Shown: piece by piece, positions 10,528-11,342 of the stretch
How the letters are laid out: the number at the start of each line of letters is the position of its first letter
Numbering within the stretch: position 1 is the first letter of the stretch
From: a virus
Lineage: Duplodnaviria > Heunggongvirae > Uroviricota > Caudoviricetes
Strand: one strand, 5' to 3'
IMG/VR virus record: IMGVR_UViG_2541047807_000012
DNA: 43,752 nt
Notes under the pieces: generated by a model
Told to the model about the DNA's origin: nothing
Databases searched by the model: none
What the model saw: the letters and a program-made list of their open reading frames with translations, nothing else
Position numbers and translations under genes: made by a program

Positions 10528-11016
10528 ATGAGTCTTTTGAATGAAGTTCAGAAATTCATTGAAGCCCATCCGGGGTGTACTTCCGGAGACATTGCGGATG
10601 CTTTTGCTGGTTACTCACGGCAGCGCGTTCTGCAGTCAGCAAGCAAGTTACGTCAGAGTGGGCGTGTGGCTCACCGTTGTGAAGGGGATACACGCAGACA
10701 TTTCCCGCGCCTGACTGAGAGAGCACAGGAGCCGGAACCACAACCAGTTCGTGAAACCAGACCTGTGCGCAATTTCTATGTCGGCACTAACGATCCCCGT
10801 GTGATTTTGTGCCTGACCCGCCAGGCTGAAGAACTAGAGTCCAGGGGCTTATACCGTCGTGCTGCAACGGTGTGGATGGCGGCATTCCGTGAAAGCCACT
10901 CCCAGCCAGAACGAAACAATTTTCTGGCGCGTCGTGAGCAGTGTTTACGGAAAAGCAGCAAGCGCGCTGTATCGGGTGATGAGTGGTATCTGTCAGGGAA
11001 TTACGTGGGGGGTTAA
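10528..11016 (+). CDS. PerC/Pch-family-like transcriptional regulator
   Basis: C-terminal half carries LESRGLYRRAATVW...ARREQCLRK, resembling the recalled PerC signature (LE-KGLWRRAA-RW...RR-YCL). Confidence 0.5.
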   Translation: MSLLNEVQKFIEAHPGCTSGDIADAFAGYSRQRVLQSASKLRQSGRVAHRCEGDTRRHFPRLTERAQEPEPQPVRETRPVRNFYVGTNDPRVILCLTRQAEELESRGLYRRAATVWMAAFRESHSQPERNNFLARREQCLRKSSKRAVSGDEWYLSGNYVGG

Positions 11017-11342
11017 TGACGACGTTAACTCAATGCCAGCAGCAGGTGCTGGATATGCTGATTTCTTATCAGAAAGAACGTGGTTTCCCGCCAACCAATC
11101 AGGAGGTGGCAGCCATGCTGGGATACCGTTCGGTGAATGCAGCGGTGGAGCATCTTCGCTCACTGGAGAAAAAAGGCGTCATCACGATAAAGCGTGGCGT
11201 GGCCCGGGGTATCACGCTTCATACCACAGTGAAGGACGACGACAGCGAGGCAGCCGGGATTATCCGCGCACTGCTTGCCGGTGAGGAAAACGCCAGGCTG
11301 CGTGCAACTCACTGGTTACATGAGAGGGGCCTGAAAGTATGA
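11016..11342 (+). CDS. LexA-like DNA-binding-domain-only protein (no S24 peptidase domain)
   Basis: TQCQQQVLDMLISYQKERGFPPTNQEVAAMLGYRSVNAAVEHLRSLEKKGVI parallels the LexA N-terminal winged helix; the ORF ends after ~108 aa. Confidence 0.6.
   Translation: MTTLTQCQQQVLDMLISYQKERGFPPTNQEVAAMLGYRSVNAAVEHLRSLEKKGVITIKRGVARGITLHTTVKDDDSEAAGIIRALLAGEENARLRATHWLHERGLKV

Follow-up and report, generated by a model that had tools for sequence, protein, structure and literature searches.

A LexA DNA-binding-domain-only protein of a lambdoid Escherichia coli prophage, possibly a RecA-insensitive LexA surrogate

The DNA described here is a stretch of 43,752 nucleotides (the window, by which we mean the whole stretch that was analysed; IMG/VR virus record IMGVR_UViG_2541047807_000012), whose gene content is that of a lambdoid Escherichia coli prophage; the prophages of E. 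coli S88 and APEC O1 are ~97% identical to it over 90% of its first 25 kb. Our subject is a gene at positions 11016 to 11342 of the plus strand, an open reading frame (ORF) with an ATG start and a TGA stop that encodes 108 amino acids (aa) and belongs to the SfV Orf42/PHROG 362 family. Its product has the SOS repressor LexA's DNA-binding domain and no protease domain. The gene and its parts are laid out as follows (pLDDT, predicted local distance difference test score).

11016..11342, plus strand: gene for the 108-aa LexA-DNA-binding-domain-only protein (SfV Orf42/PHROG 362 family), stop codon included; from the ORF, Pfam and PHROG
11007..11012, plus strand: G-run resembling a Shine-Dalgarno sequence, 3 nt 5' of the ATG; from sequence inspection
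11016..11219, plus strand: LexA-type winged helix-turn-helix (wHTH), residues 1-68, with helices at residues 6-22, 28-35 and 40-52 and strands at 56-58 and 66-68; from AlphaFold2
11130..11171, plus strand: recognition helix III, residues 39-52; from alignment to LexA
11238..11321, plus strand: amphipathic two-helix hairpin, residues 75-102, with helices at residues 75-87 and 93-102 (pLDDT ~90)

The protein carries a complete LexA winged-helix domain. Residues 1-65 match the 65-position Pfam model LexA_DNA_bind (PF01726) from end to end (E=1.5e-18; 66.8 bits, cut-off 23.7), and residues 1-68 align with E. coli LexA in BLASTP without a gap, 34 of the 68 positions being identical (50%; E=6e-21). 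The best sequence matches of the protein in the PDB are LexA and its N-terminal domain (1lea and 3jso), and in an AlphaFold2 model built from 28 family sequences (mean pLDDT 84) residues 1-68 are superimposed by Foldseek on the DNA-bound N-terminal domain of LexA (3jso) with a root-mean-square deviation of 1.0 Å over 66-67 residues, the values for 3jso and 1lea together ranging from 1.0 to 1.3 Å at ~50% identity. The likeness to the N-terminal domain of LexA that a preliminary description of this DNA had noted is therefore seen in profile, alignment and model alike. In E. coli LexA the DNA contacts of helix III are made by Ser39, Asn41, Ala42, Glu44 and Glu45 (PMC3091678; PMC13416735). Aligned to these positions, the phage protein has S39, N41, A42, V44 and E45, so that four of the five contacts are kept and one is replaced (E44V), and R28 of LexA is N in the phage protein. 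Among relatives as distant as ~40% identity, S39 and R64-G65-I66 of the wing never vary and N41 is at least 90% conserved; position 44 is variable. The same description had proposed an alignment to LexA as a check on the DNA-contacting residues, and with S39, N41, A42 and E45 retained the recognition helix is indeed LexA-like.

No match to Peptidase_S24 was obtained for the 108-aa protein with the tool that does find this domain in the cI-like repressor encoded by the window. TIGR00498, the equivalog model for LexA, gives the protein 66.5 bits, below its cut-off of 110.95, and aligns over profile positions 1-91 of 203. A frameshift or a longer ORF that would restore a peptidase domain was considered and rejected: no frameshift can add an S24 domain because RusA and then KilA-N are encoded downstream, thousands of family members keep to a length of 104-108 aa, and the 108-codon ORF is intact at 81 of 81 loci. 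The autoprotease domain is thus absent, as had been claimed, with rusA overlapping the stop codon, and the further claim that the protein would be uncleavable by RecA is sound on its structural side, the protein containing no machinery for RecA-stimulated self-cleavage. Several database records, among them LR595862.1, KF030445.1 and AB285204.1, name the protein 'SOS-response repressor and protease LexA' or 'RecA-mediated autopeptidases'; these names are wrong because no protease domain is present.

Beyond the winged helix the protein continues through a flexible linker (residues 69-74, of which 71-74 have a pLDDT below 50 in the AlphaFold2 model) into the hairpin. A tail motif, IRALLAGE..AR.RA..WL..RG, is kept through the family alignments and is present in the window protein, and conserved hydrophobic positions (79/80, 82/83, 86/87, 93, 97 and 100/101) give the two helices amphipathic faces. 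The tail is conserved in relatives down to ~40% identity, and a Pfam scan and a PDB profile search with residues 70-108 returned nothing significant. The last 40 residues form an additional, conserved element; they are more than a mere truncation. Within them LLAGE, with A88-G89 encoded at 11277-11282, aligns with the scissile VAAGE of LexA (Ala84-Gly85). Because LexA homology runs through the cleavage-site region (TIGR00498 positions 1-91; A88-G89), the alignment suggests that a captured lexA, cut short immediately past its scissile bond, gave rise to the gene, and LLAGE may be a relic of that truncation. A88-G89 falls in a predicted helix, the motif is not kept in distant family members, and there is no catalytic domain in cis; cleavage in trans by the catalytic domain of LexA, UmuD or cI is formally possible and, given the predicted helix and the lack of conservation in distant members, unlikely.

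The gene stands in the following setting, listed here by position.

386..1609: integrase
6750..7442, minus strand: cI-like repressor with helix-turn-helix (HTH) and S24 domains
7214..7233: candidate operator TACTGTTTTTATATACAGTA, the only strong SOS box in the window, inside the cI-like gene
7540..7800: cro
between cro and the Ash/Rha ORF: CII/CP76-like gene
8341..9489: Rha/Ash-type regulator of 382 aa (Pfam Phage_ASH at residues 117-212, Phage_pRha at 222-307)
9707..10525: replication gene
10528..11016, plus strand: PerC-like gene (Pfam PerC, E=1e-9; phrog_1324), abutting the LexA-like gene in the same operon
11339..11728, plus strand: rusA (Pfam RusA, E=6e-15), with a 4-nt ATGA overlap with the LexA-like gene
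3' of rusA: KilA-N gene, then a DUF968/HNH gene
13526..14320: Q, followed by lysis and structural genes

The ATG of the LexA-like gene overlaps the TAA of the PerC-like gene by one base (TAATG), its TGA overlaps the ATG of rusA (ATGA), and a consensus scan found no promoter-like site directly 5' of it. Because of these start and stop overlaps, and in view of the negative promoter scan, the gene probably shares the transcript of the early-right (pR) operon, in a nin-type position; the earlier label of a nin-like region is apt, the gene sitting between the replication gene and Q. A GTG at 10983 is unsupported as an alternative start, the homologues all beginning MTxLT, and the overlapping and antisense ORFs in 10859..11312 are mechanical ORFs with no supporting evidence. 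The 382-aa Ash/Rha ORF comes directly after the CII-like gene, and its counterparts elsewhere are named antirepressor or transcriptional regulator. In most relatives (SfV, SfII, mEp460 and cdtI) a gene for a Dam-type N6-adenine methyltransferase lies between the PerC-like and LexA-like genes (the mEp460 counterpart of window positions 10528..11016, with the Dam-type gene, is L001:4517-5170). The window has no such gene, which is why the stop of its PerC-like gene runs directly into the start of the LexA-like one. In the SfV record a dam promoter is annotated inside orf40; if this promoter is real, the dam/LexA-like pair could be expressed independently of pR in those phages.

As a sequence feature the gene is not new. 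It belongs to a common and long-annotated family whose function appears unstudied: residues 1-108 align with positions 1-106 of 106 of phrog_362 ('transcriptional repressor', E=7.6e-58), and the SfII record (KC736978) already annotates a 'LexA DNA binding domain protein'. For PHROG 362, 'transcriptional repressor' is an annotation name only, and full-text literature searches, with most subscription journals outside their coverage, returned no functional study of the SfV Orf42/PHROG 362 family. Of 5426 complete E. coli genomes, 2233 (~40%) have a megablast match to the gene, annotated in them as a 'LexA family transcriptional regulator'. Searches with tblastn matched 61 phage records, about 50 of them at 93-98% identity, a group that includes SfV orf42, SfII_44, SfIV, cdtI, mEp460 and Stx2a and Stx2c phages; mEp390 follows at 45%. 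Several weaker matches are domain-only, and some are host LexA in mislabelled bacterial contigs; a profile search for distant short homologues was dominated by genuine LexA proteins. A search against the PADLOC defence-system library gave one marginal, irrelevant match only. The LexA-like/rusA synteny is found in mEp460, SfII, SfV, cdtI, mEp390 and a Citrobacter prophage, and the 4-nt overlap with rusA is kept both in mEp390, in spite of only 45% identity of the LexA-like protein, and in the Citrobacter prophage. Over 81 loci the 46 nucleotide alleles encode just 16 proteins, and the ratio of nonsynonymous to synonymous polymorphism (pN/pS, 46 alleles) is 0.10 overall, 0.03 in the wHTH and 0.20 in the tail: the gene is under strong purifying selection.

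The preliminary description had also proposed a search of the prophage for SOS-box-like sites, and this yielded one strong and high-affinity-looking box, at 7214-7233 inside cI. The window was scored with a position-specific scoring matrix (PSSM) made from a list of E. coli boxes, at least eleven of which are found in Table 4 of PMC3009722. The site scores 26.3, compared with a maximum of 20.6 in 200 shuffles, and its reverse complement is identical to the E. coli umuD and sbmC boxes as they appear among the entries of that table (PMC3009722). Exact CTGT-N8-ACAG occurs twice in the window (0.84 expected); the second copy, at 8444 in the 5' part of the Ash/Rha ORF, scores low with the PSSM, lacks an extended palindrome and was set aside as a chance occurrence. 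Counts of CTGT/ACAG pairs in other spacings and orientations match the expectation from tetramer frequencies, none being over-represented in the window.

The box covers codons T71-S76 of cI, in the variable linker between the HTH and S24 domains. In a comparison set made up of the cI genes of Salmonella phages F1055 and 118970_sal3, Klebsiella phage Kp4871-1 and E. coli phage Flotzy, the box persists as a conserved island in genes of 69-76% nucleotide identity, with TACAGTA invariant and the flanks diverged. Of linker residues 65-88 the only ones that do not vary are T71, V72 and S76, and because the half-sites encode just these residues, the pattern points to selection on the box at the DNA level. 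A conserved umuD-type operator inside cI is a less expected observation than the LexA-like gene itself, and our literature search found no paper on a cI-internal SOS box. A consensus scan found no promoter at the box. Read by eye, the cI-sense strand has TTTACC (7256-7251) and TACTGT (7233-7228) separated by 17 nt; we do not use this pair as evidence of a promoter, since it overlaps conserved codons and is inseparable from coding constraint. The box could serve as a roadblock, or else as an internal promoter under LexA control from which a C-terminal piece of cI, with GTG V84 as its start, would be made.

Further SOS boxes occur in phages that carry the LexA-like gene. In one locus a strong box, TACTGTATTTATGAACAGTG, lies in the spacer between rusA and kilA-N (L064:10765-10784), ~100 bp 5' of the KilA-N gene that follows the LexA-like/rusA pair, and the same site is present in 9 further of 80 gene-carrying IMG/VR loci; the window's own rusA-kilA-N spacer is 19 bp long and has no box. 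The position of this box suggests that KilA-N in modules of the L064 type may be LexA-controlled and possibly antirepressor-like. Another box, TACTGTAAAAATAAACAGTG, is found in the four phages below, where it overlaps the initial codons of a DNA methyltransferase gene of the late region; all four carry the LexA-like gene, and the window lacks this site.

SfV (L007), 34170-34189: TACTGTAAAAATAAACAGTG
cdtI (L008), 44083: TACTGTAAAAATAAACAGTG
mEp460 (L001), 9763: TACTGTAAAAATAAACAGTG
Stx2c phage (L009), 16752: TACTGTAAAAATAAACAGTG

Tandem SOS boxes precede a prophage dinI homologue in cdtI (L008, 26720-26767), and a similar pair is found at 49261-49308 of the unannotated Stx2c phage (L009), also a carrier of the gene. 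In Klebsiella phage Kp4865-4 (L011, 10288-11402) a TTGAAC-17-TACTGT promoter comes after a terminator; the -10 element of the promoter forms part of a strong SOS box (10395-10414), and after the box come a DinI-like gene, a 96-aa ORF and the gene for a 39%-identical protein made of a LexA DNA-binding domain plus hairpin. Arranged in this way, the genes resemble an SOS-damping cassette; co-transcription is made uncertain by a hairpin (11043-11075) and a promoter-like site (10930-10959).

Taken together, these observations lead us to a tentative reading, to which we give slightly short of an even chance: the LexA-DNA-binding-domain-only protein would be a surrogate for LexA that does not respond to RecA; expressed from the early-right operon, it would close LexA-gated promoters again. 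We infer its DNA specificity, dimerisation, expression timing and physiological role. The protein would be made only when the early-right operon is transcribed, as a delayed-early product after infection or induction; it would dimerise through its C-terminal hairpin, bind CTGT-type SOS boxes and, having no catalytic Ser/Lys domain, be indifferent to RecA*. During induced lytic growth, when host LexA is destroyed, it would thereby shut LexA-gated promoters again. Its targets would be the host SOS genes together with the LexA operators of this phage group, namely the umuD-identical box in cI in the window, where the protein would bind at 7214-7233, and in relatives the boxes before kilA-N, the late-region methyltransferase gene and dinI. 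The idea put forward earlier, that such a protein could occupy SOS boxes regardless of DNA damage and so alter induction or the SOS response, is plausible. A more specific and somewhat unlikely version makes the protein an anti-SOS timing device, that is, a constitutive, RecA-proof LexA mimic that would re-shut the host SOS regulon and all LexA-gated switches after the onset of lytic growth, including the phage's own switches and, on co-resident elements, LexA-controlled antirepressors, colicins or defence genes.

Several points weigh against a LexA surrogate. The cI box is retained in phages F1055, 118970_sal3, Kp4871-1 and Flotzy, all four absent from the tblastn matches listed (60 of the 61) for the LexA-like gene, and because of this the cI box appears to serve host LexA primarily. 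The 80 IMG/VR loci are all near-identical relatives, so that counts over them measure linkage and are not independent comparisons; the cI box is present in only 29 of the 80, and ~35 have no strong box in the available flank. Conversely, among loci that have the cI allele of the window and flank of sufficient length, 51 of 57 carry the LexA-like gene, a figure that reflects linkage and not independent association because the loci are close relatives. No strong SOS box was found in 10 kb of mEp390, and the box scans in relatives covered gene-carrying phages, so that they do not establish an enrichment over gene-free lambdoid phages. The hairpin, which would have to stand in for the dimerisation function of S24, belongs to a tail with no known homologue. 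Finally, E44V and R28N mean that specificity could differ from that of LexA, and the sole characterised phage DNA-binding-domain-only LexA homologue, GIL01 gp6, binds a different palindrome and activates transcription. An alternative is a regulator of diverged specificity, in which the LexA fold would have been turned to a phage-specific operator so as to activate or repress a phage promoter. In its favour are the precedent of gp6, a truncated LexA homologue that acts on GaCACAnnTGTGaC and activates P3, the E44V and R28N differences from LexA, the variability of position 44 across the family and the many gene-carrying phages that have no strong SOS box in the available flank. It has to contend with the retention of four of the five helix-III contacts and of the wing in a tightly constrained wHTH, with the lack of detectable similarity to gp6 and of any alternative CTGT/ACAG arrangement that stands out in the window, and, as far as late activation of the gp6 kind is concerned, with the Q antiterminator that the late genes here already have. 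We consider it unlikely, and yet the most serious competitor of the LexA surrogate.

The link to rusA raises the question of whether the protein is instead a wHTH accessory factor for recombination or replication that works with RusA, for instance by targeting or regulating junction resolution. The 4-nt overlap with rusA is shared by E. coli and Citrobacter and extends to mEp390, whose protein is 45% identical, and 51 of 55 RusA-carrying IMG/VR loci also carry the LexA-like gene; on the other hand, the family member of Kp4865-4 is not followed by rusA, many phages (F1055 is an example) have rusA without the LexA-like gene, the conserved residues are those with which LexA reads sequence, and synteny in mosaic phages may reflect shared descent. 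A RusA accessory is accordingly improbable in our judgement. The remaining alternative, a functionless decaying remnant of a captured lexA or a frameshift artefact of a full-length one, draws on the same homology through the cleavage-site region (TIGR00498 positions 1-91; A88-G89) that suggests an origin by truncation, but it is excluded by the selection and synteny data and keeps only a vanishing likelihood: pN/pS is 0.10, 46 alleles give 16 proteins, all 81 ORFs are intact, the tail is kept to ~40% identity, the gene occurs in 2233 of 5426 E. coli genomes, and RusA, not S24, is encoded downstream.

Comparison with known systems places the protein closest to E. coli LexA itself, with which it shares the wHTH fold (50% identity over 68 residues), S39/N41/A42/E45, R64-G65-I66 and homology reaching into the Ala-Gly region. 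It differs from LexA in lacking S24, the Ser119/Lys156 catalysis, RecA*-stimulated cleavage and the LexA-type dimer interface, and in having E44V, a new C-terminal hairpin and a place in a phage early lytic operon. The cleavage fragment of LexA (residues 1-84) is likewise a LexA DNA-binding domain without the C-terminal domain; the phage protein, by contrast, is gene-encoded, ends in ...ERGLKV and not at Ala84, and has the extra hairpin. The signal by which ClpX recognises LexA is reportedly a C-terminal VAA. LexA(Ind-) mutants, in which SOS boxes are occupied irrespective of RecA*, have the phenotype expected if the phage protein is a LexA surrogate, but they are full-length dimers made constitutively from the host lexA promoter, whereas the window protein is domain-only and under phage early control. 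Non-cleavable alleles of E. coli LexA include G85D and S119A (see also the titles of PDB entries 1jhf and 1jhh). In Staphylococcus aureus LexA G94E has been used as the non-cleavable form, and the N-terminal cleavage fragment of LexA keeps some SOS-box binding and repression, such that ClpXP must remove it for SOS induction (PMC10584840).

In the Bacillus tectivirus GIL01, gp6 is a truncated homologue of LexA; it binds to GaCACAnnTGTGaC and is an activator at the late promoter P3 (PMC6182141). Like the window protein it is a temperate-phage LexA DNA-binding domain without a protease domain, and it is made from an early operon. Unlike it, gp6 has 66 aa with no C-terminal extension and a Gram-positive host, whereas the window protein has a 40-residue extension and keeps the reading residues of host LexA. 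BLASTP of the phage protein against GIL01 ORF6 (gp6) gave no alignment at E<=100, and the window protein is an independent member of the same kind as gp6, outside the gp6 family. SfV Orf42, SfII_44 and mEp460 gp46, of the PHROG 362 family, by comparison, are 93-98% identical to it, of the same length and in the same position 5' of rusA; apart from the preceding Dam methylase gene of SfV and mEp460, which the window lacks, nothing else of substance differs.

Should the protein indeed bind SOS boxes without regard to RecA, the host DNA-damage response would be overridden during phage development by a prophage gene that is very common, with carriers that include Stx2a, Stx2c, cdt and Shigella serotype-converting phages. 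The processes affected would include Shiga-toxin phage induction, competition between co-resident prophages, colicin release and SOS mutagenesis in the presence of antibiotics. As an anti-SOS timing device the protein would, given that ~40% of complete E. coli genomes have the gene and that Stx2a and Stx2c phages are among its carriers, modulate SOS-dependent induction of toxin phages and SOS mutagenesis on a wide scale. A surrogate of this kind would also be a natural, gene-encoded case in which the N-terminal domain of LexA still represses, a counterpart of GIL01 gp6 with the opposite sign. If specificity has changed instead, the protein is an unstudied regulator of the early operons of SfV-like and lambdoid phages.

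Six S24-less proteins with two tandem LexA_DNA_bind domains were also encountered (P0131, P0134, P0141, P0155, P0158 and P0165). They are metagenomic representatives of 141-329 aa, one of them fused to a PTPS domain, and their architecture is compatible with a paired functional unit.

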